DNA of 64,000 nucleotides from Candidatus Limnocylindria bacterium (GCA_036518215.1 DATDNP010000201.1:24448-88447), one strand, 5' to 3'; positions 6,268 to 64,000 are shown, counted from the stretch's first letter. Translations and numbers: made by a program. The notes: a model not told the origin generated them from the letters alone.

Positions 6268-6519
6268 CGGACCTGCGTCGATAAAGCACGGCGGCGGGTC
6301 CTGTCCCGCTCCGGGCGGGTTCTCCTCGCTGCGAGACCGAGACCCGCTTCCGTGACGACACCGAGTGCGGCGGACGCGCGGCCGCGGGCCCCTCGGTCTC
6401 TGGCATCGGAGAACATCGCCCTGCGCGTGCCACCCGCCGCCGCCAGACACGACGCATGTCTGCTAGCTATGCAGCTATGCATCCCGTCACTGTCTGGTCC
6501 GGGCTGACGTTGACCGAGC

Positions 6520-20687: not shown

Positions 20688-20692
20688 ATGAC

Positions 20693-26529: not shown

Positions 26530-26576
26530 GGTAGCCCCAGCCCTGATACTTCGCCACAAGGGGAAACACAGAGAGC

Positions 26577-27428
26577 GTGAAGTTCCGGATCGAGGTGGCG
26601 ACCGATATCGCCGCGTGCGCGGCGACGATCCCCATCCAACAGGAGACGTGGAGCGGCGACCTGGCCGTCCCGGCCAACATGCTGCTCGCGGTCGCGCACA
26701 ACGGAGGCTTCGTCGCACTGGGCTATGGCGAGGACGATCCCGAGCCGGCCGGGTTCGTGTTCGGCTTCCTCGGCATACGCGACTACCACTTCCGCCACCA
26801 CTCGCACATGCTCGCGGTCCGCGACAAGTACCGCGGCACGACGCTCGCGCGGGAGCTGAAGGAGGCGCAGCGGGACCACTGCCTCGATCAGGGCATCGAG
26901 ATCATCGCGTGGACGATGGACCCGCTCGAGGCGCGCAACGCCACGTTCAACTTCGCGAAGCTCGGCGCCTACACGCGCGAGTACCACCGGGACTTCTACG
27001 GGGAGATGCCCGACAAGCTCAACGCGGGTCTGCCGTCGGATCGCATCTACGTCGAGTGGCCGATCGGTCACGACCGCACGTACAAGCGTCTCCGCGGCGA
27101 GGATCGACCGCCGACGCTCGACGACGCCGAGGGCGAAGGGATCCGCTACGTGCTCCGCGCCGATGGGGAGCGGCCCGCTGCGGTCGCCGCACCGAATGGC
27201 GAGTCGCATCTGCTGCTCGAGATCCCTCGGCAGTTCCAGGAGATGAAGCGACGCGACGGCGCGCTCGCGCTCCGCTGGCGTCTCGCGGCCCGCGAGGCGT
27301 TCGAGTCGGCGATGGCGCAGGGCTACGCGGCGGTCGAGTTCCTCCGTTCCGCGGACGGGCGCGCCGCGTATCTCCTCGTGCCGCAGCCGCGGCGCGAGGC
27401 GCCGATCGACACGGATGAGGACGCCTGA
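26577..27428 (+). CDS. GNAT-fold acyltransferase; candidate amino-acid N-succinyl/acyl-transferase
   Basis: Motif-A-like HMLAVRDKYRGTTLAREL. The gene is translationally coupled (TGATG) to the downstream enolase-superfamily gene. Confidence 0.45.
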   Translation: MKFRIEVATDIAACAATIPIQQETWSGDLAVPANMLLAVAHNGGFVALGYGEDDPEPAGFVFGFLGIRDYHFRHHSHMLAVRDKYRGTTLARELKEAQRDHCLDQGIEIIAWTMDPLEARNATFNFAKLGAYTREYHRDFYGEMPDKLNAGLPSDRIYVEWPIGHDRTYKRLRGEDRPPTLDDAEGEGIRYVLRADGERPAAVAAPNGESHLLLEIPRQFQEMKRRDGALALRWRLAAREAFESAMAQGYAAVEFLRSADGRAAYLLVPQPRREAPIDTDEDA

Positions 27429-32060: not shown

Positions 32061-32240
32061 CGCTCACAGATTGTCGTCCTGAGCGGCCCTGTCCGGGAAC
32101 GCCTGACACGACGCCGGGCTCCTGCTCTACAGCCACCCTCCTGTGTCGCTCCTATGACGTTCGACCGGCCACGGCGATGGACGACGTCGATCGAAGGGTG
32201 CGGCATCCTTCGGGCCGATTCGGGGGGAAGGAGGTGTGAG

Positions 32241-32828
32241 ATGTCAAAGGAAGCCATCGCAAAGGTCATCCAGCGCTCGGTCAGTGACGCGGCGTTCCGC
32301 GGGCAGCTCGCGACGGACCCAGCGGGCGCGCTCCGCGGTTACGACCTCACCGATGATGAGAAGGCGGCGCTCCGGTCGCCCGACGCGCGGCGTTTGAGCG
32401 GTTACGGCGTCGACCAGCGCATGAGCAAGGCGTTCGTTCTCGGATTCGGCACCGCGGCAGTCACCGCCGTCACATCGAGCGACCTGCACGGCACGGTGCA
32501 GAGCCCCGACGCGGCCGAACGCAACATGCCGTTCCTCGCGACGGAGAGCACAAGCGGCGTGCAGAGTCCAGACGCGATCGATCGCAACGCGGCGTTCAGC
32601 GCCGACGCGACCAGCGGGACGACCGCGCAGGAGCCCAGGGACATCGCCCCGGTCGACATCGGCGGCACGGATTCGATCGTCCCGTCCGACGCCGGCCACG
32701 GTCTGCGCGGCGATCTGCTCGAAGGCGGCATGATCGACGAGGGCGCGACGATGGGCGTCGAGACGCACGACGCCTCCGGTCTGGTACCGCCGGGCGGCGA
32801 CAGCGCCGACACGAACATCGAGCCCTGA
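32241..32828 (+). CDS. Protein with a Nif11/NHLP-like N-terminal leader domain and a Ser/Thr/Asp/Gly-rich C-terminus (paralog of the gene at 63704)
   Basis: MSKEAIAKVIQRSVSDAAFRGQLATDPAGALRGYDLTDDEKAALRS resembles Nif11 / nitrile-hydratase-leader-peptide RiPP precursor domains. The C-terminal 120 aa are low-complexity with no Cys. Confidence 0.5.
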   Translation: MSKEAIAKVIQRSVSDAAFRGQLATDPAGALRGYDLTDDEKAALRSPDARRLSGYGVDQRMSKAFVLGFGTAAVTAVTSSDLHGTVQSPDAAERNMPFLATESTSGVQSPDAIDRNAAFSADATSGTTAQEPRDIAPVDIGGTDSIVPSDAGHGLRGDLLEGGMIDEGATMGVETHDASGLVPPGGDSADTNIEP

Positions 32829-32942: not shown

Positions 32943-33752
32943 ATGGACACGACGGTGCAGTCCACCGCGGACGCGAGCCAGGTCAGCGAAGGCATCTACG
33001 TCTACTGCATCATCGAGAGCCCCGAGTCGCGGACGTTCGGGAAGATCGGCATCGGCGGTCGCGGCGACGACGTGTTCACCGTCCATTACAAGGAGCTCGC
33101 CGCGGTCGTGAGCCGGACGCCGCTCATGGTGTACGACCCGACCCGGGAGAACGCGCTCACCCACGAGCACGTGAACGAGATCGTGATGATCGACAACGGC
33201 TTCACGCCCGTGCCGATGAGCTTCGGGACGCTGTTCAAGACCGAGGACGACATCGTCGAGTTCCTGAAGGACACGTACGACGCGCTGCGCGACGTGCTCC
33301 GGAAGATGAAGGACAAGCTCGAGTTCGGTCTCAAGGTGAACTGGGACCGCGACATGGTGCTCGCGGACGTGGAACGCGACTACGAGGAGATCCGGCGGCT
33401 GAAGGCGCAGATCGAGAGCGATCAGCAGAGCTCCACGTACTTCGCTCGCATGCAGCTCGGCCGTCTCGTCGAGCAGGCGCTCGCCGAGAAGTCCGAGACG
33501 TTCGTCCGCGAGATCTACGACGAGCTTCGGGAAGCCGCGATCGCCTCGCGCTCGAACAAGGTCATCGGCGATCGCATGATCATGAACGCCGCGTTCCTCG
33601 TCGAACGCGAGAAGGCCGACTTCTTCGACAAGAAGGTGCAGGAGATCGGCCGGCGCTACGAGGGCAAGCTGAAGTTCACGTACACCGGTCCATGGCCGCC
33701 GTACAACTTCGTCACGATCCGGCTGCAGCTGGAGCGGAGCGCCGGGGTCTAG
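32943..33752 (+). CDS. gvpF: Gas vesicle protein GvpF/GvpL family
   Basis: GIYVYCIIESPE... at the N-terminus and TYTGPWPPYNFV at the C-terminus are hallmarks of the GvpL_GvpF family. Confidence 0.85.
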   Translation: MDTTVQSTADASQVSEGIYVYCIIESPESRTFGKIGIGGRGDDVFTVHYKELAAVVSRTPLMVYDPTRENALTHEHVNEIVMIDNGFTPVPMSFGTLFKTEDDIVEFLKDTYDALRDVLRKMKDKLEFGLKVNWDRDMVLADVERDYEEIRRLKAQIESDQQSSTYFARMQLGRLVEQALAEKSETFVREIYDELREAAIASRSNKVIGDRMIMNAAFLVEREKADFFDKKVQEIGRRYEGKLKFTYTGPWPPYNFVTIRLQLERSAGV

Positions 33753-33754
33753 CC

Positions 33755-34081
33755 GTGCTCCTGCGCCTGCTCACCCTCCCCATCAGCGGTCCCATCGCCG
33801 GCATCCGCTACTGCCTCGAGAAGGTCGTCGAGGTCGCGGACCGCGAGATGTGGGACGAGGAACCCGTGCGCGAGCAGCTCATCCTCGTGAACCAGGCGTA
33901 CGAAGAGGGACGTCTTCCCGAAGAGGACTTCCGCGAGCGCGAGGCCGAGCTCCTCGCACGGCTCCGCGAGATCCGCGAGCACACGAAGGCGCGGGCGCGC
34001 GCCGACGCGGAAGCGCAGGCGGGCGCCGCGGTCGACGAGAAGCGTCGCGTCGTCATCGACGTCCCGGACGAGCTCGAGTGA
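33755..34081 (+). CDS. gvpG: Gas vesicle protein GvpG
   Basis: GTG start (VLLRLLTLPISGPIAGIRYCLEKVVEVADREMWDE...EEGRLPEEDFREREAELLARLREIRE) matches the GvpG pattern. The upstream extension from 33692 was rejected. Confidence 0.75.
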   Translation: MLLRLLTLPISGPIAGIRYCLEKVVEVADREMWDEEPVREQLILVNQAYEEGRLPEEDFREREAELLARLREIREHTKARARADAEAQAGAAVDEKRRVVIDVPDELE

Positions 34082-34106: not shown

Positions 34107-34883
34107 ATGACGCTGCAGTACGTGTACGGCATCGTCCCCGCCGCCGAGGCGAACGCCGTCGACGGCGCGGCGATCGCCGGCCTCGATGGAGGTCGCGTGC
34201 GAACGATCGTCGAAGGCCCGTTCGCCGCGGCCACGAGCGAGGTGAGCGCGGAGGAGTACGGGAGCGCGTCGCTCAACGATCGCGTCGCGGATCTCGAGTG
34301 GCTCACGCCGCGGGCCGCGACCCATCAGGCCGTGAACATGCGTCTCCTCGACGTCGCCGGCACCGTCCTTCCGCTCGCGTTCGGCGCGCTCTACCACGAC
34401 GATGCGCGCGTCCGCGGGATGCTGCGGGAGGACCTCTCGTCGCGAAGCGCGCGCATGCGCGAGCTCGCGGGGCGCGCCGAATGGGTCGTCACGGTGTCGC
34501 GCGAGGTAAGCGCGGTCGCCGCGGCCGACGAGGACGTCCATGCGCTCGAAGAGGAGATCGCGAAGGCGACACCCGGCAAAGCGTTCCTGCTCGAGCGAAG
34601 GCGCGCGAGCGTCGCGAGCGCGGCCGGCGAGCGCGCCGACGCGGATGCCGCGCGACGCGCGCTCGCGCTCCTCACTCCGGTGAGCGAGCGGACGTATCGC
34701 GAGCCCGTGGCGCGCGGTGGCACGGATGTCGTCGTGCTCCGCGTGTCGCTCCTCGCGGCGCGCGACCGCAGCGACGCGGTGGACGGCGCGATCGCCGCGG
34801 TCCGCGAGGACCTCGCCGGCGCGGGATACCACGTGCGCGCGACGGGTCCCTGGCCGGCATACCGCTTCGGATCGCTGCCGTGA
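34107..34883 (+). CDS. gvpL: Gas vesicle protein GvpL/GvpF family (second copy)
   Basis: TLQYVYGIVPAAEA... at the N-terminus and ATGPWPAYRFGSLP at the C-terminus. Confidence 0.85.
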   Translation: MTLQYVYGIVPAAEANAVDGAAIAGLDGGRVRTIVEGPFAAATSEVSAEEYGSASLNDRVADLEWLTPRAATHQAVNMRLLDVAGTVLPLAFGALYHDDARVRGMLREDLSSRSARMRELAGRAEWVVTVSREVSAVAAADEDVHALEEEIAKATPGKAFLLERRRASVASAAGERADADAARRALALLTPVSERTYREPVARGGTDVVVLRVSLLAARDRSDAVDGAIAAVREDLAGAGYHVRATGPWPAYRFGSLP

Positions 34884-52080: not shown

Positions 52081-55000
52081 GTGGGGGATCAAGGGACGGC
52101 CCGGGACGAACGGCGCGTGGCCGAGCTCGAAGCCGAGCTCGCGCGGGCGCGCGAGCAGCAGGCCGCGATCGCCGGGGTGCTGCAGGCGATGGCGGGATCG
52201 CACGCCGACGAACAGGCCATCCTCGACGCGATCGCGACGAGCGCCGTCCGGTACTGCGGCGCGAACGACGCGCAGGTCTGGCTCGTCCGCGGCGACGAGC
52301 TCGAGCGCGCCGCGCATCACGGCCCGGTCGCGAACCTCGAGGGACGGATCCGGCTCGACCCGACGTCCGTCGCGGGACGCGCGATCGGCGAGCGCCGCAC
52401 GATCCACATCAGCGACGTCCTCGGTCCCGAGGGCGATGCGTATCCGCAGACACGCGCGCGCTTCGCGCAGATGGGCCACCGCGCGCTGCTCGTCGCCCCG
52501 GTCGTGCGCGACGGGGTCGCGATCGGCTCGCTCAACCTGCGGAAGCACGCGCCCGAGCCTTTCACCACGGAGCAGATCCAGCTGCTCGAGGCGTTCGCGG
52601 ACCAGGCCGCGATCGTGATCGAGAACGTTCGCCTGCACCGCGAGACGACAGCCTCACTCGAGCGGCAGACGGCGATCAGCGACCTCCTCGGCACGATCAG
52701 CCGATCGGCGTTCGACCTCGATGCCGTCCTCACCACGATCTGCGTCCGCGCCGTGGCGCTCGTCGGCGCACAGGGCGCGTCGATCGGGATCCGCGAGGGC
52801 GACGAGATCGTCATCATCGCGACCGGCGGCGGCCCGGCGACGCTCGGCAAAGGCGAGCGCTGGCTGATCGACGACACCACCGTCGGCGGACGTGCGTTCC
52901 TGGACGGTAAGCGCCACTACGCTCCCGATGTCACAAAAGACCCGGCGCTTCCCCAGGGAGGGGCGCAGACCCGTCTCGCGATCCCATTCGTGCGCGACGG
53001 CACCGTGACCGGTGTGCTCTTCACGGCACACCGCGAGGCGAACGCGTTCGACGAACGCGACATCCAGCTGCTCGAGGTGTTCGCCGATCAGGCGGCCATC
53101 GCGATGGAGAACGTACGTCTCTACCGCGAGACGAAGGAGTCGCTCGAGCAGCAGACCGCGATCAGCGAGATCCTGCAGGTGATCTCGAGCAGCCCGACCG
53201 ACATACAGCCTGTGCTCGACGCGATCGCGCGGAACGCGGCGCGTTACTGCCTCGCGGAAGACTGCGGCGTAGCGCTCATCCGTTCCGACGGCCTGCTCGA
53301 GCAGGTCGCGCAGTACGGTCCGATCGCGCTGGACATCGCGCCATGGCCGGTCGATCGCACCTCCGTGCGTGGCCGCGCGATCGTGGACCGGCAGGTGATC
53401 CACGTACCGGACATGGCCTCCGAGAGCGAGGCCGAGTACGCCATCGGCGTTCGGCGCTCACGCGAGCTTGGCCAACGCTCGATACTCGCCGCGCCGCTCC
53501 TGCGAGAGGGCAGGCCGCTCGGCGCGATCGGGCTGCGACGCACCGAGGTCCGGCCCTTCACGGACAAGCAGATCGCGCTGCTGCGCACGTTCGCAGATCA
53601 GGCCGCCATCGCGATCGAGAACGTCCGCCTGTTCAACGAGACGAAGCAGGCGCTCGAGCAGCAGACCGCGATCAGCGAAGTGCTGCGCGCGATCTCGAGC
53701 TCGCCGACCTCGTCGCAGCCGGTCCTCGATGTCGTGGCCACGAACGCCGTGCGCTTCTGCGAGGCCGAGCACGCCGTCGTGTGCCTCATCCGCGACGGGC
53801 TCCTGACGCCCGTCGCCCACGGCGGCCTCGACTGGGAGCCCGTGAAGCCGTTCGTCATCGACCGCACGACGGTGACCGGTCGCGCGGTCGTGGACCGACG
53901 GATCACTCACGTCGCAGACCTCTGGGCGCTCGAATCCGAGTATCCGCTCGGCTATGCGCAGGCGCGCGAGGGCAACGAACGCGCGCTCGTCGCCGCGCCG
54001 CTCATGCACCAGGATGAGGTCGTCGGCGCGATCATCCTCCGGCGGACGCACCCGACGCCGTTCACCGAACGACAGATCGATCTGCTCGCGACGTTCGCCG
54101 ATCAAGCCGCGATCGCCATCTCGAACGTGCGCCTCTTCAACGAGACGAAGGAAGCGCTCGAGCAGCAGACCGCGATCGCCGACATCCTGCGCGTCATCTC
54201 CAGCTCGCCGACCGACCTGCAGCCGGTCGCGGACGCGATCGCGAAGAGCGCGCTCCGTTTCGCCGGCGCAGAGGACGCATCGCTCGTCTTGGTGAAGGAC
54301 GGAGTCTTGGTGCCGGCCTCTCACCGCGGACCGATGGTGATCCCTTTGACGGTGCCGGCGGACCGGCGTTCGGTCACCGGTCGTGCGATCCTCGACCGCA
54401 AGACGGTCCACGTCGGGGACGTCATGGCGAACGAGGAATTTCCGCAGAGCACGGAGAACGCGGCCAGCAGCGGCCAGCGCGCCGTGCTCGCCGCGCCGCT
54501 CATGCGCGAGGGGACGGCCATCGGCGCGATCCTGCTCCGCAAGACCGAGCCAAAGCCGTTCACCGACGGGCAGGTCGCCCTCGTGGAGACGTTCGCATCG
54601 CAGGCCGTGATCGCGTTCGAGAACGTGCGTCTCTTCAATGAGACAAAGGTCGCTCTCGAGCGTCAAACGGCGACGGCGGAGGTCGTCAAGCTCATGAGCA
54701 GCACCGCGTTCGACCTCCGGCGCGTGCTCGACATCGTCATCGGACACGCGACGCAGCTCGCCCAAGCCGACGCTGGGTTCATCTATCAGGCCGACGGTGA
54801 GTACCTGCGCATGACGGCGGCGTACGGCGAGCACGCCGAGGCGATGCGCGAGTGGCAAGCGGAACATCCGATCCGCGGCGACTATCTCGGGTCGGCCACC
54901 GGTCGCGCCTTCGCGGAGCGCCGGACGGTGCACATCTCGGACGTCGAAGCCGACGCGAGCTACACGTATGGCGAGGCGAAGCAGCTCGGCGCTTTCAGGA

Positions 55001-56436
55001 CGCTCCTCTCCGTGCCGCTCGTGCGCGACGATCGAGCCGTCGGCACCTTCTCGCTGTGGCGCACGACGCCACGTCCATTCACGGCAGAGGAGATCGCGCT
55101 CGTCGAGAGCTTCGCCGATCAGGCGCTCATCGCGATCGAGAACGTTCGCCTCTTCGACGAGACGAAGGGCGCCCTCGAGCGACAGACGGCACTGGGCGAG
55201 ATCCTGCGCGTCATGGCCAGCTCGCCCACGAGCGAGCAGCCGGTCCTCGACGCCATCGCCCACAACGCCGTGCGCTTCTCGGGCGCCGAGGACGCGGCGG
55301 TCGCGCTCCGTGGCGAGAAGACATATCGCTTCGTCGCGCACGAGGGTGCGCTCCTACCCGACTTTGGCGTCGATCGGCCGCTCGACGAATCGACGGTGAG
55401 CGGTCGGGCGATGCTCCGAGCCGAGCTCGTCCACGTTCCGGATATCCGTGAGCGCGCCGCGGAGTTCCCGCGCAGCTACGAGTTCGCCCAGCGCAGCGGC
55501 CAGCGCGCGATGCTCTCGGTCCCGATGCTGCACGACGGCACGGCGATCGGCTCGATCGTGCTCCGCCGCAAGGACCCGCGCGCGTACTCCAACGAGGAGA
55601 TCGAGATCGCGCGCGCCTTCGCGGACCAGGCGGCGATCGCGATCGAGAACGTGCGGCTCTTCCACGAGATCCAGGAGAAGAGCGCACAGCTCGAGATCGC
55701 GAACCGCCACAAGAGCGAGTTCCTCGCGAACATGAGCCACGAGCTGCGGACGCCGCTGAACGCGATCATCGGGTTCAGCGAGGTGCTGTTGCAGGGCATC
55801 TTCGGCGACGTGAACGAGAAGCAGCGCGAGTATCTCGACGACGTGCTGTCGTCGGGAAAGCACCTGCTCTCGCTCATCAACGACATCCTCGACCTCTCGA
55901 AGATCGAAGCGGGCCGGATGGAGCTCGAGGTCTCGACGTTCTCTCTCACCGCCGCGCTCGAGAGCGGGCTCACGATCGTCCGCGAGCGGGCCGCGCGGCA
56001 CGGGATCGCGCTCGCAGCCGTGATCCCGGACGATCTTCCGACCGTGGACGCCGACGAGCGCAAGGTGAAGCAGATCCTCTACAACCTCCTCTCGAACGCC
56101 GTGAAGTTCACTCCCGACGGCGGACGCGTGGAGGTGCGTGTGCGTCGCGTAGGCGACGACGTCGAGATCGCCGTGAAGGACAACGGCATCGGGATCGCAC
56201 CCGCGGATCAGCCCAAGGTGTTCGAGGAGTTCCGGCAGGTCGGGCGCGAGCGGTCGCGCGAAGGCACCGGCCTCGGCCTCACGCTCACGAAGCGCTTCGT
56301 CGAGCTGCACGGCGGCCGGATCTGGCTCGCGAGCGAGGTCGGCGCGGGGAGCACGTTCACGTTCACCCTCCCGCTGCGCCGCGACGCCCGCCGCGGGGAC
56401 CCTGCCAGGGAGATCACGCCCGCGCAGCCATCCTGA
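52081..56436 (+). CDS. Soluble giant sensor histidine kinase with seven tandem GAF domains (1451 aa)
   Basis: No TM helix. Seven GAF units of about 180 aa, each followed by a near-identical linker (F(A/T)[30 protein letters not shown]). Then HisKA ([19 protein letters not shown]) and HATPase_c ([16 protein letters not shown]). Confidence 0.9.
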   Translation: MGDQGTARDERRVAELEAELARAREQQAAIAGVLQAMAGSHADEQAILDAIATSAVRYCGANDAQVWLVRGDELERAAHHGPVANLEGRIRLDPTSVAGRAIGERRTIHISDVLGPEGDAYPQTRARFAQMGHRALLVAPVVRDGVAIGSLNLRKHAPEPFTTEQIQLLEAFADQAAIVIENVRLHRETTASLERQTAISDLLGTISRSAFDLDAVLTTICVRAVALVGAQGASIGIREGDEIVIIATGGGPATLGKGERWLIDDTTVGGRAFLDGKRHYAPDVTKDPALPQGGAQTRLAIPFVRDGTVTGVLFTAHREANAFDERDIQLLEVFADQAAIAMENVRLYRETKESLEQQTAISEILQVISSSPTDIQPVLDAIARNAARYCLAEDCGVALIRSDGLLEQVAQYGPIALDIAPWPVDRTSVRGRAIVDRQVIHVPDMASESEAEYAIGVRRSRELGQRSILAAPLLREGRPLGAIGLRRTEVRPFTDKQIALLRTFADQAAIAIENVRLFNETKQALEQQTAISEVLRAISSSPTSSQPVLDVVATNAVRFCEAEHAVVCLIRDGLLTPVAHGGLDWEPVKPFVIDRTTVTGRAVVDRRITHVADLWALESEYPLGYAQAREGNERALVAAPLMHQDEVVGAIILRRTHPTPFTERQIDLLATFADQAAIAISNVRLFNETKEALEQQTAIADILRVISSSPTDLQPVADAIAKSALRFAGAEDASLVLVKDGVLVPASHRGPMVIPLTVPADRRSVTGRAILDRKTVHVGDVMANEEFPQSTENAASSGQRAVLAAPLMREGTAIGAILLRKTEPKPFTDGQVALVETFASQAVIAFENVRLFNETKVALERQTATAEVVKLMSSTAFDLRRVLDIVIGHATQLAQADAGFIYQADGEYLRMTAAYGEHAEAMREWQAEHPIRGDYLGSATGRAFAERRTVHISDVEADASYTYGEAKQLGAFRTLLSVPLVRDDRAVGTFSLWRTTPRPFTAEEIALVESFADQALIAIENVRLFDETKGALERQTALGEILRVMASSPTSEQPVLDAIAHNAVRFSGAEDAAVALRGEKTYRFVAHEGALLPDFGVDRPLDESTVSGRAMLRAELVHVPDIRERAAEFPRSYEFAQRSGQRAMLSVPMLHDGTAIGSIVLRRKDPRAYSNEEIEIARAFADQAAIAIENVRLFHEIQEKSAQLEIANRHKSEFLANMSHELRTPLNAIIGFSEVLLQGIFGDVNEKQREYLDDVLSSGKHLLSLINDILDLSKIEAGRMELEVSTFSLTAALESGLTIVRERAARHGIALAAVIPDDLPTVDADERKVKQILYNLLSNAVKFTPDGGRVEVRVRRVGDDVEIAVKDNGIGIAPADQPKVFEEFRQVGRERSREGTGLGLTLTKRFVELHGGRIWLASEVGAGSTFTFTLPLRRDARRGDPAREITPAQPS
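55690..56380 (+). repeat. Duplicated kinase-core segment (near-identical at DNA level to 59115-59800)
   Basis: The HisKA-HATPase_c regions of the two adjacent kinases share long identical nucleotide runs, e.g. aaccg(c/t)cacaagagcgagttcctcgcgaacatgagccacgagctgcg. This points to a recent tandem duplication. Confidence 0.7.
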
Positions 56437-56523: not shown

Positions 56524-59500
56524 GTGGACCTCGTTCGCCGAGCTGAATGGCTCGTGGAACGACCGTGGCGACTCGTCGCCATCGTGGCCGTCGCAGTCGC
56601 GCTGCCGATCCTTGTCCTCGGTGAGATATCGAACGAACAGACGCGCGCCCGGGACGTATTGGCGCGCGCCGAGGCGGGCGAACGCGATGCGGCAGCGGCG
56701 ACCGAAGTGCTCGCGACCCGACTGACCTCGATCGAACGAGCCGTCGTAACGACGGGCTCCCGGGATCCGCTGGGCGTTCCCACGCCGCTCATCAACGCCG
56801 TCGAGCGACTGGATAGCGAGGCCATCGAGGCGGAGCTCGCTGCGGTGTGGCCGTATCGCGATCCGTCGGTGATCCGGCTGGCGGTCGTCGATCCGGACGC
56901 GCACGTCATCGGGCAGACGCCGCAGCCTCTCAGTGGTGTTCGCACCGTTGCGTCCTATAGCAGCGCGTTCGCACTGAGCGCGCCGGAAGCGAGCGACGTC
57001 CATGTCGACGCGGGCGACCCTCGCCTCGAGATCGGGACGCCCATCGAAGGAGCCGAACGGCGCGGGTATCGCCTCATCGCTACGGTGAGTCTCCGCGCGC
57101 TCGCCTCCGACACACTCGCGCCGCTCGCGTTCGTGTATCCGGACGTGTATCTCATCGACACGCGCGGGCGTCTTGCGCTGCGCGGCTCGCGTTTGCTCGC
57201 GGACGAACAACTCTTGCGCGATGTGACCGCCGCCACGGCTGTGATGCCCGGCGCATCGAGCGTGATCGATCCGATCGATCCTTCGTATCGAATACTCGCG
57301 ACCGCGCGGATGCCCGAATTCGGTTGGTCGATCGTCGTGCTCGACCCGGGCGTCTCCAACGCGACCCTGGATGCCAGCCTTGCGCAGCAGCGTGCACTGC
57401 GGATCGGCCTTGTTGTCGTGCTTCTTGTCGGCTCGGTGATCGTGGGCAACACGTCGAGCGCGACGATCCGGCGCCGTCGCGAGGCACAAGAGGCTCTCGA
57501 ACAGCAGGTCGCGACGAGCGCGGTGCTGCGTGCCATCAGCGCGACGCATGACGACGTGCAGGCCGTGCTGCAGTGTGTCGTGGATGAGGCGCTGCGCCTC
57601 TGTGACGCGGAGAGCGCGACCTTCTATCGGAGCGACGGCGAGGATCGCGTGCTCATGGCTGTCGCAGGTCGCCACCCGGAGTCTGTCCCCATCGGCGAGC
57701 GCATCGCGAACACGCCGACGACGCTGCTCAGCTTGGCCCTTCGAGAAGGGAAAACGTTCCACACGCGCGACATGTCGAGTGAGGAGACGCGCCGGCTGGT
57801 CCGGCCCGACGAAACGCAGGAGGAATGGCAGCGCACGATCCTCGCATCGTGGCCAGGACTGTCCCGGCTCGCGGTTCCCGTGATGCAGGATGGCAAGGCG
57901 GTCGGTGTCATCCGCGTCGATCGCCGTGAGCGCGGCGGCTTCACACCGCAGCAGATCAAGCTCATCGAGTCCTTCGCGGCGCAGGCCGCGATCGCGATGG
58001 AAAACGTTCGTCTCTTCAATGAGACGCGAGAGGCGCTCGATCGACAGACCGCCATTAGTGAAGTCCTGAAGACGATCTCGCAGAGCGTCTTCCAACTGGA
58101 CTCGACGCTCCAGACCGTCGTCGAGAACGCGGCACGACTGTGCGACGCGGACGCAGCCTGGATGGTCGAATGGGCCGGTGCGGGCTACACGGGCCTCGCC
58201 CGATACGCGCGCACCCCAGAGATAGCCGCGCTGCTCGAAAGGGCACGTAAGTCGCAGCCCGGCGTCGTCGCTCCAGCCGAACGGCATCGCATCGCCGGCC
58301 GGATGTTCCTCGAACGTCGCACGATCGGCGTGGCTGACATAGCGAACGAGCCGGAGCTCTCAGGGTCATGGACGGCCCTCGATATCGGTGCGCGGTCCGT
58401 GCTCGGCGTACCTGTCGTGAGCGATGGCGTGCCTCTCGCGGGAATCGTGCTTGCGCGGGTTACCGTACGCCCGTTCTCCAAGAGCGAGACGGAACTCGTC
58501 GAGACGTTCGCCGATCAGGCGGCGATCGCCATCAAGAACGTCCGTCTCTTCACCGGTACGAAGGAGGCGCTCGAGCAGCAGACCGCGGTGAGCGATGTCC
58601 TCAAGACGATCAGCCGGAGCGTGTTCGAGCTGGCGCCGACCCTACGCACGGTCGTCGAGAACGCGGCACGCATCTGCGACGCTGATGCCGGCTGGATGAC
58701 TCGCACCTCTCTGTCGGGACACAGCTCGGGAGCGCGCTACGGCCGCACGCCCGAGATCGCACGCGCCGTCGAGCTCGCGTATGAGAGGTCCGTCGGGGAC
58801 GTCTCCGGGCCCGATCCCAGTAGGATCGGGGACCGCGTCTACCTCGAACGGCGGCCGATCGTCGTCGACGACATCGCGGCCGACGCCACCCTCGCGAACT
58901 CCTACATCGCGCACGGGATCAAGTCACGCTCCGTGCTTGCGGTGCCGGTCCTTGGCGACGACGCCGTGCTCGGCGCGATCATCCTCGCTCGTCTGACGGT
59001 GAGACCGTTCTCTGAACGCGAAACGCAGCTCGTTCAGACGTTCGCTGACCAAGCCGCGATCGCGATCCAGAACGTTCGTCTCTTCAATGAGGTCGAAGAC
59101 AAGTCGCGGCAGCTCGAGGCCGCCAACCGTCACAAGAGCGAGTTCCTCGCGAACATGAGCCACGAGCTGCGAACGCCGCTCAACGCGATCATCGGCTTCA
59201 GCGAGGTGCTTCTCCAAGGGCTCTTCGGTGACATCAACGCAAAGCAGCGCGAATACCTCGACGACGTGCTGACCTCCGGGAAGCATCTGCTGTCGCTCAT
59301 CAACGACATCCTCGACCTCTCTAAGGTCGAGGCGGGCCGCATGGAGCTGGAGCTGTCGCGCTTCTCGGTCGCGACGACGGTCGATACCTCGCTCACGATC
59401 ATCCGGGAGCGTGCTGCGCGTCACAGCATCGCACTGAGGGCCGTTCTCCCGAACGATCTGCCCGAGATCGAGGCCGACGAGCGGAAGGTCCGCCAGATCC

Positions 59501-59826
59501 TCTTCAACCTCCTGTCGAACGCCGTGAAGTTCACGCCGGATGGCGGCACAATCAGCCTTCACGTGCGCCGCGAGGCCGGCGGGTTGTGCTTCGCGGTGTC
59601 GGACACGGGGATCGGGATCGCGCCGGAGGATCAGGTGAAGGTGTTCGAAGAATTCCGTCAGGTCGGCCGCGAGCGCGCGCGCGAAGGGACCGGGCTGGGC
59701 TTGACGCTCACAAAGCGCTTCGTCGAGCTCCATGGCGGCCGGATCTGGGTCGAGAGCGAGACGGGAAAGGGCAGCACGTTCTCGTTCACCCTTCCGCTGA
59801 CGCAGCCGTCGGCGGCGCCGGCATGA
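56524..59826 (+). CDS. Membrane sensor histidine kinase with an extracytoplasmic sensor domain, three GAF domains and a kinase core (1100 aa)
   Basis: TM helix at about aa 15-35 and again at about aa 290-312, with a ~250-aa extracytoplasmic region between them. Then 3x GAF with the same linker motif and a HisKA-HATPase_c core paralogous to 52081..56436. Confidence 0.9.
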
Positions 59827-60200
59827 GCGACCTCGTTCTCATCATCGAGGACAACGAGAAGAACATGAAGCTCGCGCGCGACCTCCTGCGCTTTCACGGC
59901 TTCGACACGATCGAGGCGACGAGCGCGGAGGATGGCCTCGCGCTCGCGCGGGAGCGACAGCCGCGGCTCGTCCTCATGGACATCCAGCTTCCCGGGATGG
60001 ACGGCGTCACAGCGCTGGGGCGATTGAGGTCGGACGGCACGACCGCCGCGATCCCCGTCGTCGCGATGACGGCCTCTGTGATGAAGGAGGACCGCGAGCG
60101 CTTCGACAAGGCGGGCTTCGACGGGTTCCTCATGAAGCCGATCGACGTGCGCGCGTTCCCGCAGCAGGTGCGCGACGCGATCGCGCGCGGCCGCGCGTGA
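59823..60200 (+). CDS. Single-domain response regulator (CheY-like receiver)
   Basis: ATGA overlap with the kinase stop. [11 protein letters not shown]...[13 protein letters not shown]...KPID. 125 aa with no output domain. Confidence 0.85.
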
Positions 60201-61237
60201 GCGATCGCCCGAAGATCCTCGCCGTCGACGACACCCCGGAGAACCTCCGGCTCCTCGACGCGCTCCTCGCGCCGCAGGGCTACGAGCTCGTGCCGGCGTC
60301 CTCCGGACGCGAGGCGCTCGCGCTCGTGCCGGAGCGGAGGCCGGACCTGCTCCTCGTCGACCTCGTGATGCCGGAGATGAACGGCTTCGAGGTCACCAAG
60401 GCCGTCCGCGCCGACGACACCTGGAAGCATCTGCCGATCATCATCATCACCGCGACGGGCGGCGCCGATCTCGTTCGGGCGCTCGAGGCGGGCGCGGACG
60501 ACTACGTGTCGAAGCCGTTCGACAAGAACGAGCTGCTCGCGCGCGTCCGGTCGCTCATCCGCGTGAAGAACTACTACGACACCGTGCAGCGGCAGCGCGA
60601 GGAGCTGTCGCGCTTCTTCTCGCCCGCGATCGCGCACCTCATCACGAGCGACGAAGGGAAGCGCATGCTCGACGGCCATCGTCGCGCCGTCACGGTCGTC
60701 TTCTGCGACCTGCGCGGCTTCACGGCGTTCTCGGAGACGGTGGAACCCGAGGAGGTGCTGGGCGTGCTGCGCGAGTACCACCGCGCGATGGGCGAGCTCA
60801 TCGCAGCGCACGGCGGCACGCTCGAGCACTTCGAGGGCGACGGCTTCATGGTGTTCTTCAACGATCCGATCGAAACGCCTCAGCACGAGCATGTCGCCGT
60901 GCGTATGGCCGTGGCGATGCGAGACCGCTTCGACGAGCTCGCCGCGCCGTGGCGCAGGAAGGGCTACGACCTCGCGTTCGGTGTCGGCGTTGCGGTGGGC
61001 TACGCGACGCTCGGACGCATCGGCTATGAGGGCCGCTACGACTACGCCGCGATCGGCAACGTGACGATCCACGCGTCGCGCCTCATGGCACGAGCGCAGG
61101 GCGGCGAGATCCTCATCACGCAGCGCCTGAACGCCGCGATCGAGGACGAGTTCGAGACGGCGGCCGTCGGCGAGCTCGAGCTGAAGGGCGTCACACGACC
61201 GGTCGCGGCGTTCAACGTCATTGGGAGGCGGAGATGA
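60197..61237 (+). CDS. Response regulator with a class III adenylate/guanylate cyclase (CHD) output domain
   Basis: GTGA overlap. REC (ILAVDDTPEN...LLLVDLVMPEMNG...KPFDKNEL). CHD (VTVVFCDLRGFTAFSE...GTLEHFEGDGFMVFFNDP...GVGVAVGYATLGRIG). Confidence 0.85.
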   Translation: MSDRPKILAVDDTPENLRLLDALLAPQGYELVPASSGREALALVPERRPDLLLVDLVMPEMNGFEVTKAVRADDTWKHLPIIIITATGGADLVRALEAGADDYVSKPFDKNELLARVRSLIRVKNYYDTVQRQREELSRFFSPAIAHLITSDEGKRMLDGHRRAVTVVFCDLRGFTAFSETVEPEEVLGVLREYHRAMGELIAAHGGTLEHFEGDGFMVFFNDPIETPQHEHVAVRMAVAMRDRFDELAAPWRRKGYDLAFGVGVAVGYATLGRIGYEGRYDYAAIGNVTIHASRLMARAQGGEILITQRLNAAIEDEFETAAVGELELKGVTRPVAAFNVIGRRR

Positions 61238-63366
61238 GCGACATCTACGAGACGATCAGTACGCGGCTCGATTACGGCTCGTTCGTCCCGCGGCCCATCG
61301 GCGATGTCGAGCGCGCGGACCTGAAGCGGCGGGACGGCACGATGTACACCGTCCTGAAGAACCCGCACGGCGACCGTGCCGCCGGCCTCTACATCCGGCT
61401 CGAGCCGGATGACGTCGCGCTCTTCGAGCTGATGGACGGCAACCGCACGATCCAAGACATCCTTGTCAATTACCTGGCGACGCACGGCGTGCTCGCCGTC
61501 GACCGCCTCGCGCGCCTCACGGCCGCGCTGTCGGCGAACGGCTTCTTCGGCGACGAGCGCCCGCGCTTCTACGAGCGCCTCGCCATGAACCGCCAGCTCC
61601 GCGATCCGCTCGTTCGTCTTTCGCTGTCGCTGCGGCGGCTCATCACGTGGGACATCGCGCGCTGGTCGAACGCCGATTCGCTCGTCCAGCGCGTGTACCG
61701 CGCCGGAGCGTGGCTGGCGTTCACGCCCGTCGGCGCGGCGCTCATCGCGGTCCTCTGCGTCGCCGGGATCGTCGCGTGGGTCCGCGAGGTCAGCGTCGGT
61801 CGCCACACGCTCGTCACGCTCGACGGGTCATTCGTGCTCGGGATCGTCGCCCTCATCCTCCTCCAGGTGCTATCGATCTCTGTGCACGAGGCAGGGCACG
61901 CGCTCGCGATCGCGCATTACGGGCGTCGCGTCCGACGCCTCGGTCTCGCGGTCTATTACCTCTTCCCGTGCGTCTACGTTGACAGCACCGACATGACGAT
62001 GGCATCACGAAAGGCGCGCATCGTCGTGTCCCTCGCCGGTCCGGTGGGCGGTCTCACGGTGAGCGCACTGTGCGCATTCGTGGCGATCGCCGACGGCGGA
62101 GTCCTCGGCAGCATCGCCTTCAAAGCATCGTCGCTCTTCCTTTTCCAATTCGCGCTCAACCTCATGCCGATCCTCGAGCTCGACGGCTACTACATCCTCG
62201 TCGACCTGCTCGACGCTCCGCTCCTCCGACAGCGCGCGCTCGCGTTCGCGCGGGGCGGCGTCATGCGGAAGCTTCGACGGCGCGAGCGGTGGTCGCCGTC
62301 GGAGATCGGGCTCGGCGTGTACGGCCTTCTCGCGATCGCCACCTCCTTCCTGATGATCGGCTTGTCGCTCGCGCTCTGGGAGTCACGCGTCTCGATCGCG
62401 GCACGCGAGCTGCTCGCAGCGGGGCCGCTCGGAGCGCTCGCGCTGGCGCTCCTCGTGCTCGTGTTCATCGGTCCACTCATCGTGGCGCTCACGATCCGCG
62501 TGGTCGGCTGGGGCAGGACCTTCGCGAAGGGGCGCGCACGGCGCGTACGCCGGCGTGAGCAGCAGGCGCTCGTCGAACGCGCACGCATCCTCTCGCGCGT
62601 GCCGTTCCTCGCGAGTCTCGCAGGGAATGCGCTCATCGCGATCGCGTCACACCTGAGCGAGGAGCGTGTGGACGCGAATACGAACGTCGTGACGATCGGC
62701 GAGCCCGGCCAGCGTTTCTACGTCGTGCGCTCGGGCCGTCTCGAGGTGCTCGACGCGAGCGGGCGCGTCATCGGCACGCTCGCGCCGGGTGACGGCTTCG
62801 GAGAGCTCGCGCTGCTCGACCACCGGCCGCGGACGGCGACGGTGCGCGCGACCGAGCCGAGCGAGCTCTGGTCCCTCGACCGCGGCCACTTCGAGCGTTG
62901 GATCCGCGAGCGGTACGAGATCGCCGCGCGGATCCGCGCGTCGGCTGAGGAGCGCGACATGCTCGCGAAGCTGCCCTTCTTCAAGGGACTGGAGCCTGCC
63001 GAGCTCGACCGGATCGTGCCGCATCTCAAGCTGACTCGCGTCGCCGCGGGCGAGGCGGTCTTCCGCGAAGGCGATCCCGGCGACCGCTACTACGTCATTC
63101 GCGAGGGCGAGGCGGACGTGAGCGTCGGCGGGAGCCTCGTGGCCCACCTCGGACCGGGCAGCGGCTTCGGGGAGCTCGCGCTGCTTTTCGGGAAGCCGCG
63201 TACAGCCACGGTGACCGCTACGAAGGATCTTGTCCTGGCCTCCCTCGGGCGCAGCGAGTTCGGCTGGCTCGTACGGGAATCAGGTGAGACGATGGGTGAG
63301 TTCAAGACACGAACGGCGCATTATGTCGGTTCCGCCGGCCTCGGGACGGCGGTGAGGGGGGCTTAG
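61234..63366 (+). CDS. Site-2 protease (peptidase M50) fused to two C-terminal cyclic-nucleotide-binding domains
   Basis: ATGA overlap. M50 zinc motif (HEAGHAL) in a TM helix and the second S2P motif (NLMPILELDG), with multiple TM helices. Then 2x CNB with GFGELALL...RTATVRA and GFGELALLFGKPRTATVTA. Confidence 0.85.
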   Translation: MSDIYETISTRLDYGSFVPRPIGDVERADLKRRDGTMYTVLKNPHGDRAAGLYIRLEPDDVALFELMDGNRTIQDILVNYLATHGVLAVDRLARLTAALSANGFFGDERPRFYERLAMNRQLRDPLVRLSLSLRRLITWDIARWSNADSLVQRVYRAGAWLAFTPVGAALIAVLCVAGIVAWVREVSVGRHTLVTLDGSFVLGIVALILLQVLSISVHEAGHALAIAHYGRRVRRLGLAVYYLFPCVYVDSTDMTMASRKARIVVSLAGPVGGLTVSALCAFVAIADGGVLGSIAFKASSLFLFQFALNLMPILELDGYYILVDLLDAPLLRQRALAFARGGVMRKLRRRERWSPSEIGLGVYGLLAIATSFLMIGLSLALWESRVSIAARELLAAGPLGALALALLVLVFIGPLIVALTIRVVGWGRTFAKGRARRVRRREQQALVERARILSRVPFLASLAGNALIAIASHLSEERVDANTNVVTIGEPGQRFYVVRSGRLEVLDASGRVIGTLAPGDGFGELALLDHRPRTATVRATEPSELWSLDRGHFERWIRERYEIAARIRASAEERDMLAKLPFFKGLEPAELDRIVPHLKLTRVAAGEAVFREGDPGDRYYVIREGEADVSVGGSLVAHLGPGSGFGELALLFGKPRTATVTATKDLVLASLGRSEFGWLVRESGETMGEFKTRTAHYVGSAGLGTAVRGA

Positions 63367-63367
63367 G

Positions 63368-63583
63368 GTGGACTGCTGGGTCTGCGAGCGCACGGCGCTC
63401 GGGGCGTGCCGGTTCTGCGGCCGCGGCACCTGCCGCGACCACGCGCGCACGCACCCCTTCGTCATCGAAGTGTTCCGCGGACGCAAGCACGAGACGCTGC
63501 GGGCGCTCGTCGTCGAGGACGCGCTCCACTGTGGCGTGTGCAAGCCCCGCAGCGAGCCCGTCGAGCTCCCCGAGCTCGAGTGA
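63368..63583 (+). CDS. Small Cys-rich zinc-ribbon-like protein
   Basis: GTG 1 nt after the protease stop. 71 aa with CWVCE..13..CRFCGRGTC..25..HCGVCK and an acidic tail. This is a predicted Cys4-type zinc ribbon. Confidence 0.5.
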   Translation: MDCWVCERTALGACRFCGRGTCRDHARTHPFVIEVFRGRKHETLRALVVEDALHCGVCKPRSEPVELPELE

Positions 63584-63703
63584 GGAGGCCTACCTGAGAG
63601 CTACTGTCATCACGATCACACAGGGGCAGCCATGGCGATGGACGTATGGGGAGCGTGGCGGGGCCAGAGTTCCGTCAACAGGCGATGGGAGGCGAAACAG
63701 AGA

Positions 63704-64000
63704 TGTCCAAGGAAGCTCTCGCGAAGGTGGTCCAGCGGGCGATCAGTGACGCGGCGTTCCGCCGTCAGATCTCGAGCGATCCGACGGGTGCGCTGCGCGG
63801 CTTCGACCTGACGTCGGACGAGACCGCGGCCATCCGCGCGGCGGACGCTGGCAAGCTCAGCGCGCTCGGCATCGACCAGCGCATGAGCAAGGCGTTCACC
63901 CTCGGCGGGAACGCGGACTCTCCGAGCATGGTCGGCGGCACCGACATCAACACGCTCGGCAGCGCGATCACGACCGGAAGCGCGGGCACGGCCGGCGGCG
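63704..64000 (+). CDS. Protein with a Nif11/NHLP-like N-terminal leader domain (5' part; paralog of 32241..32828)
   Basis: MSKEALAKVVQRAISDAAFRRQISSDPTGALRGFDLTSDETAAIRAADAGKLSALGIDQRMSKAFTLGG is about 60% identical to the N-terminus of the 32241 gene. It runs off the window end. Confidence 0.5.

Follow-up and report, generated by a model that had tools for sequence, protein, structure and literature searches.

A single reading frame in the 64,000 nucleotides of Candidatus Limnocylindria DNA analysed here (the window) encodes a 710-aa protein in which an RRE-like domain, the membrane core of an M50 protease and two cyclic nucleotide-binding (CNB) domains follow one another. We predict that this protein, a member of the M50 superfamily, is active as an intramembrane zinc metalloprotease, and the model that explains the data best has it gated by a cyclic nucleotide (cNMP) and guided by its RRE-like domain to cleave proteins that carry a leader domain. 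We hold this model, and the predicted protease activity as part of it, to be evenly poised between right and wrong: nucleotide binding and the identity of the nucleotide, proteolysis, the substrate and the role of a small zinc protein encoded next door (ZNF) are all things that we infer from sequence. The initial annotation had described one ORF uniting site-2 protease (S2P) motifs with two CNB domains, and this is borne out by an HEAGH motif, an NLMPILELDG motif and two canonical cNMP-binding domains, arranged as follows:

61234 to 63366, plus strand: whole gene (710 aa, single reading frame), RRE-like domain, 6-TM M50 protease core and tandem cNMP-binding domains
61291 to 61548, plus strand: RRE/PqqD-like winged-helix domain, cytoplasmic and N-terminal by prediction, about residues 20-105, three strands then three helices, 'LFELMDGNRTIQDIL'
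61708 to 62505, plus strand: six-helix membrane core of the M50 protease, residues 159-424, from hydropathy, AlphaFold (AF2) and profile evidence
61885 to 61899, plus strand: HEAGH zinc-binding/catalytic motif, residues 218-222, cytoplasmic end of TM2
62158 to 62187, plus strand: NLMPILELDG (NxxPxxxLDG) motif, residues 309-318, TM4
62623 to 62958, plus strand: CNB-A, about residues 464-575, with phosphate-binding cassette (PBC) GFGELALLDHRPRTATV
62995 to 63333, plus strand: CNB-B, about residues 588-700, with PBC GFGELALLFGKPRTATV

The start codon is supported by homologues of the same length (709-713 aa), which cover 100% of the query protein; the ATG overlaps the stop codon of an upstream cyclase gene (ATGA). 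A Pfam search with the protein returned Peptidase_M50 (PF02163) at 34.5 bits against a cut-off of 27.2 and cNMP_binding (PF00027) twice (137.3 bits, E 1.8e-40), but no PDZ domain at E<=0.01 and no CBS domain, the C-terminus consisting of the two cNMP_binding domains instead. PF02163 was likewise matched in 23 of 23 diverse sequences of the M50 module. The AF2 model of the fusion has a pLDDT of 83.4; a Foldseek search with the whole model reports the CNB tandem only, and for the RRE-like and M50 parts we relied on secondary structure together with sequence profiles.

Across 51 homologues, reaching down to about 30% identity, H218, E219 and H222 are invariant, as are P312, D317 and G318, while N309 is kept in 49 of 51. 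Such constancy implies that the motifs are under selection and did not arise by chance, and a reading of the protein as a pseudo-protease or mere membrane anchor was ruled out because all catalytic residues are invariant. NLMPILELDG aligns to the same motif of mjS2P and, by homology, D317 would be the third zinc ligand. A hydropathy scan finds six TM segments. Lysines and arginines number 6, 9 and 11 in loops 2-3 and 4-5 and after TM6, but 2, 0 and 2 in loops 1-2, 3-4 and 5-6, a distribution that points to an N-in/C-in topology with the CNB tandem in the cytoplasm; the outward loops are merely 6-17 residues long. Together with the AF2 model, the charges thus predict that both soluble ends are cytoplasmic. 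The initial annotation had named two placements beforehand as capable of overturning its reading. HEAGH turns out to sit within helix 200-228 of the AF2 model and within the predicted TM2, and the tandem is cytoplasmic by charge distribution, not extracellular.

What kind of M50 protease is this? One scenario, and the one favoured by the initial annotation, is classical regulated intramembrane proteolysis, in which an enzyme of the RseP, Rip1 or SpoIVFB kind cuts a membrane-bound anti-sigma or pro-sigma factor after a site-1 cut, with the CNB tandem standing in for the usual PDZ or CBS gate. The superfamily and the catalytic motifs are the same, and the closest solved relative of the module's profile is the core of mjS2P (3b4r, E 7.6e-8). 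The same family profile, however, gives non-significant values against RseP (E 5) and SpoIVFB (E 1.8), and the missing PDZ and CBS domains also speak against this scenario. Canonical S2Ps (mjS2P 3B4R, RseP, SpoIVFB, Rip1) resemble the query in their HExxH helix, their NPDG helix and an active site near the cytoplasmic face, but the similarity is limited to the core: the query lacks PDZ and CBS domains, has an additional RRE-like domain and probably acts on soluble substrates. The protein belongs to the M50/S2P superfamily but not to the RseP/SpoIVFB/Rip1 kind. Its best curated profile is NF041824, that of the daptide RRE-intramembrane peptidase, which matches residues 50-406 with 122.1 bits (E 2.9e-35). 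That score lies below the 300-bit equivalog cut-off, which makes the protein a homologue and not an equivalog. The next-best curated profile, YydH/LiaK (NF058609), matches residues 204-327 with 61 bits against a cut-off of 225 (E 1.4e-16). JGI labels homologues 'putative peptide zinc metalloprotease protein'.

The NF041824 match extends across the N-terminal RRE-like region, where the AF2 model places three strands followed by three helices (residues 26-101) and where D68 and G69 are near-invariant or invariant among homologues. Direct matches are weak (1e-3 to 4e-4 for PqqD in homologues, E 0.056 for the PaaA RRE); taken with the homology to the MpaP family, they suggest that the N-terminal 150 residues form an RRE-like, putatively peptide-docking domain. 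According to the daptide paper, an RRE is fused there N-terminally to an intramembrane S2P, and this enzyme, MpaP, takes off the leader. Judged by profile similarity, the first 445 residues of the query belong to this branch of RRE-fused intramembrane peptidases, of which MpaP is the prototype: a cytoplasmic N-terminal RRE-like domain, predicted in the case of the query, is followed by an M50 membrane core, and both proteins are encoded beside precursor genes with a conserved leader and a variable C-terminal part. Unlike MpaP, the query carries the additional C-terminal CNB tandem and has ZNF as a partner, and its neighbours are NHLP-clan Os1348/Frankia_peptide proteins, not daptide precursors with an ELExMEAP leader and a C-terminal Thr. 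Neither such precursors nor modification genes of the MpaB/C/D/M type are seen in the window, where the neighbours are a kinase, a REC protein, a cyclase, ZNF and an Os1348-family protein. Two further kinds of membrane M50 enzyme from RiPP pathways, YydH/EpeP (epipeptide) and TglG/TmoG (pearlin), likewise process ribosomal peptides and not transcription-factor anchors. The YydH/LiaK model matches the query, but those enzymes are without a nucleotide-sensor domain, and no radical-SAM epimerase or other known partner of the YydH/TglG type was found near the query gene.

In the tandem, the cassette GFGELALL...PRTATV, which the initial annotation had noted in both domains, is present at residues 521-537 and again at 644-660, with phosphate-binding residues G523-E524...R533 and G646-E647...R656. 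The PBC Arg is kept in 49 of 51 homologues in both domains, and the Glu in 50 of 51 for CNB-A, with Glu or Asp in all 51 for CNB-B; the residue after the Arg varies among T, G, S and A. The suggested comparison with PKA also held up: in Foldseek the tandem matches the CNB-A/B pairs of PKA-R and PKG over about 240 columns (E ~1e-19 to 1e-17, 26-32% identity), including Bcy1 (E 9.8e-20, 32% identity). As in these proteins, two consecutive CNB domains carry canonical phosphate-binding cassettes, but PKA-R inhibits a kinase subunit, whereas the query tandem is joined covalently to a membrane protease through a helix that in the AF2 model runs without a break from TM6 to CNB-A (residues 398-453). 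CNB-B also matches the TIGR03896 'cyc_nuc_ocin' model (E 4.2e-12) with 46 bits, far under the cut-off of 161. By its NCBIfam description, TIGR03896 comprises soluble proteins that are encoded in transport operons for NHLP/Nif11 bacteriocins, have a link to ABC/HlyD export and are not known to be fused to a protease; it shares with the query a tandem CNB tied genomically to NHLP-type precursor systems. We found no discussion of this family in the 2010 NHLP paper.

It is reasonable to infer that a second messenger gates the protease, because an M50 enzyme is fused to a cytoplasmic tandem CNB with intact ligand-binding residues and no PDZ or CBS domain; the case is strengthened by the cyclase gene that overlaps the protease start codon. 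The regulatory CNB fusion proposed in the initial annotation is upheld in this sense, as a cytoplasmic tandem of the PKA-R type. The CBS domain of SpoIVFB, which binds ATP, offers a precedent for nucleotide dependence.

The gene lies in a chain with the following neighbours:

56524 to 59826, plus strand: histidine kinase with three GAF domains, heading a chain of abutting or overlapping genes down to the zinc protein
59823 to 60200, plus strand: single-domain response regulator (REC), its ATG overlapping the kinase stop codon
60197 to 61237, plus strand: REC receiver fused to a class III nucleotide cyclase (Guanylate_cyc), by profile match
63368 to 63583, plus strand: 71-aa Cys/His-rich two-zinc protein 'ZNF', with a GTG start 1 nt past the protease stop; unannotated
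63703 to 64000, plus strand: 5' part of an NHLP-clan 'Os1348/Frankia_peptide' leader-domain protein gene, running off the window; candidate substrate

A genome-contig scan with the one protein as query returned five close relatives plus L007 from Sinorhizobium, a false lead with a CNB-only match. A metagenome scan widened the sample; the loci compared number 91, among them 73 M50-CNB loci and 7 with complete CNB-less M50 genes. The order of kinase, REC, REC/cyclase, M50-CNB and ZNF recurs in L002, in L005 and in the distant L042, whose M50 module is 31% identical.

The REC-cyclase is a putative local source of cyclic nucleotide. It has His at the position that is Lys in adenylate cyclases and Glu in guanylate cyclases, and in the query's lineage Ile takes the position of the catalytic Asn, so that both its putative activity and its product are uncertain. 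Cyclases are found near 8 of the 73 M50-CNB loci and at 2 of 4 loci located through ZNF, which limits this linkage to a minority. The overlap of the cyclase gene with the protease start went unmentioned in the initial annotation.

These features of the cyclase bear on two further scenarios. First, the tandem might be structural or nucleotide-independent, or its ligand might, as in trypanosome PKA-R, not be a 3',5'-cyclic nucleotide, and proteolysis would then proceed without a second-messenger gate. Cyclase residues that depart from the canonical set, here including the catalytic Asn, would fit such a scenario, as would the presence of cAMP-independent, nucleoside-binding PKA-R proteins among the Foldseek neighbours. 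We nevertheless regard it as unlikely: in both domains, 49-51 of 51 homologues retain the PBC Glu and Arg, which form the ribose-phosphate clamp, and the neighbourhoods repeatedly contain cyclases and Crp-type cNMP regulators. Second, imagine a Pycsar-like antiphage system, in which infection prompts the cyclase to make a cyclic (pyrimidine) nucleotide and the CNB-membrane protein serves as the effector that kills. PADLOC matches the CNB domains to PycTIR (1.3e-20) and the cyclase to PycC models (9.9e-19), and the non-canonical specificity residues point the same way, but these matches are confined to generic CNB and class III cyclase folds. Moreover, the cyclase is REC-fused within a two-component phosphorelay operon and not part of a stand-alone PycC two-gene cassette, most loci are cyclase-free, the module is syntenic and conserved across the whole class (homologues 62-87% identical), and its neighbours are peptide, sigma-factor and Crp genes, not defence islands. 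We rejected this scenario as extremely improbable, given matches at domain level only, a cyclase inside a relay operon and its absence from most loci.

ZNF is a conserved partner of CNB-bearing M50 proteins as judged by gene linkage. At least 50 of the 73 M50-CNB loci have it as the adjacent gene, and the complete CNB-less M50 genes all lack it there; conversely, look-ups started from ZNF find M50-CNB immediately upstream in four cases out of four. Where the protease module is about 33% identical, ZNF is 55-65% identical. It is modelled as a compact two-zinc fold with invariant zinc ligands and a C-terminal tail, 'P..P.ELPELE', that is conserved but of lower model confidence. ZNF may act as partner, pseudo-substrate or substrate. 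In the last case it could be the true target, cleaved or released upon cNMP binding and acting as the output, for example on an adjacent Crp-type regulator or on transcription, with the leader proteins a lineage-specific add-on. It is the most constant neighbour, better conserved than the enzyme itself, and co-occurs with CNB-bearing forms only; its tail could enter a binding groove, and a gene of the Crp family follows in 15 of the 73 M50-CNB loci and 3 of 4 ZNF-anchored ones. However, the fold with its invariant ligands suits a stable subunit better than a consumable substrate, and CNB-less family members without ZNF keep leader ORFs in all 7 cases, so that the ancestral substrate link is with the leader family. 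We therefore consider ZNF an improbable target, though one to be taken seriously.

This leaves the leader-domain proteins as candidate substrates. Base 64000, the end of the window, cuts the downstream gene, and orthologous loci were used for its remainder. The Os1348-family NHLP-clan model NF038399 matches window positions 63703-63999 with 62.1 bits (cut-off 40), a paralogue at 32238-32828 with 58.1 bits, and orthologues of the downstream protein with 63.2 and 58.7 bits. Leader-domain ORFs are found in 38 of 91 loci, in 25 of 73 M50-CNB loci (about a third, many contigs being short) and beside all seven complete CNB-less M50 genes; another Chloroflexota MAG has them too, next to a homologue of 36% identity, and 12 other loci carry a different small-ORF family. 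RRE-M50 proteases likely pair with Os1348/Frankia_peptide leaders as a general rule. The leader is conserved and the tails are hypervariable; in the query's lineage the tail is a low-complexity stretch of 100-260 aa, unlike a typical RiPP core.

The classical substrate context, a membrane anti-sigma factor with a site-1 protease, did not materialize: the conserved neighbours are ZNF and NHLP-clan leader proteins, and next to the gene there is no sigma/anti-sigma pair, either in the window or in close relatives. In five related loci an ECF sigma factor and an Hx3Cx2C anti-sigma-like protein do adjoin M50-CNB, as classical intramembrane proteolysis would have it. However, these anti-sigma-like proteins have no TM segment (maximum hydropathy <=1.24) and do have a leader-like domain, which fits RRE-guided recognition of a soluble substrate. 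We therefore judge the classical scenario very unlikely.

Under cNMP-gated, RRE-guided cleavage, events might unfold as follows. A cyclic nucleotide, presumably made by the upstream REC-cyclase under control of the GAF-histidine-kinase/REC phosphorelay, would bind the PKA-R-like pair, to which a rigid helix would lead from TM6 on the cytoplasmic side. Binding would open the active site at the cytoplasmic face through this helix, through capture or release of the 71-aa partner, or both. The RRE-like domain would dock the NHLP-clan leader domain (about 65 residues) of the downstream-encoded protein, and a cut near the conserved leader-domain end, '...D-x-R-[IVLM]-[ST]-K', would split the leader from the tail, which might then be exported. 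In some lineages the leader-like handle would sit on the soluble Hx3Cx2C protein beside the ECF sigma factor, in which case the system could also be wired to transcription. A broader claim, which we advance tentatively and which probably overreaches, is that this is a widespread signalling device: a cNMP, made here by a cyclase under two-component control, would act on a PKA-like tandem CNB and a dedicated two-zinc partner and so gate an intramembrane protease guided by its RRE. Any protein with an NHLP-type leader would then be cut, be it a peptide precursor whose tail is hypervariable or, in certain lineages, a soluble anti-sigma factor.

In the S2P family, the known gates are a preceding cut, PDZ domains or an ATP-binding CBS domain, and the leader peptidases of RiPP pathways are usually regarded as constitutive. 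If the model is right, this would be the first S2P-family protease gated by a second messenger and a case in which the RiPP-style pair of leader and RRE is reused for signal transduction. Such a gate would couple second-messenger signalling directly to the maturation or release of peptides and, in certain lineages, to the control of ECF sigma factors, through parts that are defined and testable (cyclase, sensor-protease, zinc partner and leader-tagged substrate).

The architecture is not a new sighting, since the fusion is common in metagenomes and already auto-named. A tandem CNB is present in 84 of the best 150 cluster representatives at 50% identity, but databases call the CNB-bearing homologues merely 'cyclic nucleotide-binding domain-containing protein'. 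The architecture is thus known to databases and its function is the unstudied part: the literature searched yielded no published work on the M50-CNB fusion or biochemistry of any member, and the 2010 NHLP paper mentions neither cyclic nucleotides nor M50. In homologues of about 1100 aa, an insert of some 400 aa was considered as an HlyD-like adaptor and rejected, since it consists of consecutive hydrophobic helices and matches nothing in Pfam. Soil and sediment lineages harbour the system in abundance, namely Chloroflexota (Limnocylindria), Actinomycetota and candidate phyla, in which cNMP outputs have received very little study. The analysis also flags two unannotated small-protein families.

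The window has a G+C content of about 70% and shows a 100% identical match to a protein of a Candidatus Limnocylindria (Chloroflexota) MAG. Every gene listed from position 52081 to its end lies on the forward strand:

Genes from 52081 to the end of the window
52081-56436 (+): histidine kinase with seven GAF domains
56524-59826 (+): histidine kinase with three GAF domains
59823-60200 (+): REC protein, in ATGA overlap with the kinase
60197-61237 (+): REC-class III cyclase, its stop overlapped by the protease ATG
61234-63366 (+): protease of 710 aa, with Peptidase_M50 and two cNMP_binding domains (Pfam)
63368-63583 (+): ZNF, a 71-aa Cys/His-rich protein starting 1 nt 3' of the protease stop
63703 onwards, past the window edge (+): leader-domain gene 'MSKEALAKVVQRAISDAAFRRQ...', matched by NF038399

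Two very large tandem histidine kinases head this chain; in L002, one of the loci compared below, a single 2062-aa ORF with many GAF repeats occupies the corresponding place.

The motifs that led the initial annotation to propose a site-2 protease (S2P) with a tandem cyclic nucleotide-binding (CNB) module are all found in the protein: HEAGH at residues 218-222, NLMPILELDG at 309-318, and the cassette GFGELALL...PRTATV at 521-537 and again at 644-660. Profiles and conservation agree. Pfam matches Peptidase_M50 at 34.5 bits (cut-off 27.2) and cNMP_binding twice (E 1.8e-40); H218, E219, H222, P312, D317 and G318 do not vary across 51 homologues with identities down to about 30%, and in each CNB domain 49-51 of the 51 aligned sequences retain the Glu and Arg of the cassette. 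This motif pattern is not due to chance. Alongside such retention, the notion that the CNB domains work independently of any ligand strikes us as quite unlikely.

Hydropathy delineates six TM segments. Lys and Arg residues number 6 in loop 2-3, 9 in loop 4-5 and 11 in the linker after TM6, whereas the loops alternating with these have 2, 0 and 2, so that the protein is predicted to be N-in/C-in, with residues 1-158 and the CNB tandem alike in the cytoplasm. In an AlphaFold2 model (51-sequence alignment, mean pLDDT 83.4, pTM 0.62), HEAGH lies inside helix 200-228, and a single unbroken helix, 398-453, leads from TM6 into CNB-A. We thus find neither an extracellular CNB tandem nor an HExxH motif outside a membrane helix, the two outcomes that the initial annotation had regarded as fatal to its proposal. 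For the last 240 residues, Foldseek finds tandem CNB-A/B structures of PKA-R and PKG, for example Bcy1 (E 9.8e-20, 32% identity). The idea of an S2P with a second-messenger gate, as read from sequence, is a reasonable one.

The M50 motifs and core are real, but the family assignment does not stand as first proposed. Among NCBIfam models, NF041824, for the intramembrane metalloprotease of daptide biosynthesis, matches best (E 2.9e-35 over residues 50-406; 122 bits, below the 300-bit cut-off), and the YydH/LiaK epipeptide protease comes next. In the published daptide pathway, an RRE is joined to the N-terminus of an intramembrane S2P, MpaP, to which leader removal is assigned. The modelled N-terminal domain, with strands at 26-31, 37-43 and 52-56 followed by helices at 58-66, 73-84 and 89-101, has the order of the RRE/PqqD topology. 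PqqD matches among homologues are weak (2 of 23 module sequences; P0140 at 4.4e-4), as is the match of the module profile (residues 1-445, RRE-M50) to the RRE of PaaA (5FF5, E 0.056). The closest solved relative of that profile is the mjS2P core (E 7.6e-8), with no significant match to either RseP or SpoIVFB, and Pfam finds no PDZ or CBS domain in the protease. Taken together, these comparisons group it with RRE-guided peptide-processing M50 enzymes, and the assignment should be corrected to a predicted member of that branch rather than one of the RseP/SpoIVFB/Rip1 kind.

An exhaustive search of 1.84 billion cluster representatives with residues 1-445 returned 9239 relatives at E<=1e-3 and 335 at 1e-30. 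CNB domains are present in 84 of the best 150 representatives, in two architectures: one of about 700-750 aa, like the window protease, and one of about 1000-1170 aa (P0126, P0128 at L010 6073-9375, and some 50 other representatives) where about 400 aa of hydrophobic, polytopic sequence, lacking any Pfam match, are added between M50 core and CNBs. Relatives also include stand-alone M50 forms of about 430-490 aa, a protein with an N-terminal FHA domain (P0166) and one with a C-terminal AhpC/TSA domain (P0179). The named members are proteins of Chloroflexota, Solirubrobacterales and Candidatus Edwardsbacteria, and are entered as 'cyclic nucleotide-binding domain-containing protein' or 'CRP-like cAMP-binding protein/Zn-dependent protease'. 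The M50-CNB fusion is common and already automatically annotated; a full-text literature search found no paper on it. Apparently new is the conserved system of sensor-protease, zinc partner and leader-tagged proteins, often with Crp, cyclase or ECF sigma genes, on which we found no study.

We compared 95 loci: those of close relatives, two that encode a Chloroflexota protein at 36% identity, two that encode one from Candidatus Edwardsbacteria, four anchored on ZNF, and 80 metagenome loci with M50 modules 30-37% identical. The first 91 (L001-L091, of which L007 is without an M50 gene) were labelled by HMM and phmmer on six-frame ORFs, with the window labelled alongside. An M50-CNB gene is present in 73 labelled loci. 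ZNF lies beside it in at least 50 of these, many of the ZNF-less loci being contigs that end early; a leader-domain ORF occurs in 25, a Crp-type regulator in 15, a cyclase in 8, and an M16 peptidase and an ECF sigma factor in 5 each. Complete CNB-less M50 genes are accompanied by leader ORFs in 7 of 7 cases and by ZNF in none of 7. From these counts we infer that the leader family tracks the RRE-M50 module, and ZNF the CNB module. L042, at 31% module identity, has the same upstream relay as the window, in the order HK, REC, REC-cyclase, M50-CNB, ZNF, M16, ECF sigma, ZAS-leader, leader. In L078, a 1154-aa M50-module protein (3927-7391) precedes ZNF and a leader protein; neither phmmer nor Pfam finds CNB domains in it, and its sensor may be degenerate or replaced.

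ZNF usually starts 2-35 nt past the protease stop, and is sometimes upstream and divergent. Looking up ZNF homologues in reverse, we found an M50-CNB gene (701-758 aa) immediately upstream in 4 of 4 cases. ZNF retains 55-65% identity where the protease module retains only about 33%; C3, C14, C17, C22, H25, C55 and C58 do not vary and C6 is kept in at least 90%, from which two zinc sites are predicted. All 230 homologues are named 'hypothetical protein', and none has a Pfam family. Such conservation might also suit a protein that is itself the true target or the output of the protease, a role we consider unlikely.

A second small-ORF family, of 42-50 aa, occurs at twelve loci. It starts '[MV][AST][DE]KKI.P', and 10 of the 12 both continue 'ATRV' and finish in a Lys/Arg-rich tail; at several of its loci without a detectable leader ORF it is placed between ZNF, just upstream, and a Crp gene.

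Second small-ORF family (position in locus)
L029: 8479
L032: 8463
L045: 3706
L054: 3344
L055: 2739
L079: 3585
L080: 3541
L084: 6402
L089: 2618
L092: 1323
L094: 6380
L095: 3680

The gene from 63703 matches NF038399, 'Os1348 family NHLP clan protein', at 62.1 bits (cut-off 40), and its orthologues weakly match Pfam Frankia_peptide, a domain that the literature places among RiPP leader domains, LigA-like and three-helix, kin to Nif11 and NHLP. The conserved leader domain of about 65 aa ends in '[LV]D-x-R-[IVLM]-[ST]-K'. Tails beyond it are hypervariable, at 0-40 aa (e.g. GGYLTSDYNTPFN, GSGSIWDNQNTSFGSGD); those of Limnocylindria leader proteins are low-complexity and run to 100-260 aa. At five loci an NHLP-type leader-like domain of this kind makes up the C-terminal end of a soluble protein, Hx3Cx2C (ZAS-like), adjoining an ECF sigma gene:

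ZAS-leader proteins (positions in locus)
L030: 355-750 (-)
L031: 5811-6272
L042: 10204-10656
L061: 3607-4329
L087: 208-600 (-)

Their Hx3Cx2C motif is N-terminal and anti-sigma-like, and an M50-CNB gene also adjoins each; L031 and L042 have an M16 peptidase as well. Sigma-factor neighbours might call to mind a membrane anti-sigma factor as the target of classical RIP; the proteins here are soluble, and we hold that scenario to be very unlikely.

The cyclase catalytic domain is nearest to P. aeruginosa CyaB (3R5G, E 7e-34) and Synechocystis Cya2, and both metal-binding Asp residues are there. At the specificity position, where adenylate cyclases carry Lys and guanylate cyclases, as well as Cya2, carry Glu, the window enzyme has His, L031 Arg and L042 Ser; Ile replaces the catalytic Asn in the enzymes of the window, of L002 and of L005, and L031 and L042 retain it. 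Given the variant His and Ile, enzyme activity and product are the weakest link in taking the REC-cyclase as a putative local source of cNMP. A Pycsar-like defence role, suggested by PADLOC matches that are at domain level only, is highly improbable.

Our preferred scheme, to which we would give even chances, is kinase/REC-driven cNMP gating of RRE-guided leader cleavage, and we infer each of its five steps. The REC-cyclase would act under kinase and REC input; the tandem CNB would bind the cyclic nucleotide; the signal would pass via the TM6-continuous helix and/or ZNF binding or release; the RRE-like domain would dock the leader domain; and the protease would cut at its cytoplasmic-face active site, possibly with export of the kind proposed in the literature for EpeP.

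Elsewhere in the window, a CNB protein is encoded at 26074-26901 (-), its CNB at about residues 135-260 of a 275-aa stop-to-stop frame, which suggests a genome rich in cNMP receptors. A second Os1348-family leader protein lies 30 kb away at 32238-32828 (+) (NF038399, 58.1 bits); 'QSPDAAERN / PRDIAPV' motifs recur along its tail and are also found in extra paralogues of L002 and L005. Directly 3' of it, the ORF at 32943-33752 (+) has GvpF/GvpL matches below cut-offs, and by eye those at 33692-34081 and 34107-34883 (+) look like further gas-vesicle genes. In this 32-34 kb stretch G+C is lower and AT skew positive, and it is resembled by 20001-22000, where G+C is lowered to 0.661 and AT skew is strongly positive (0.153).
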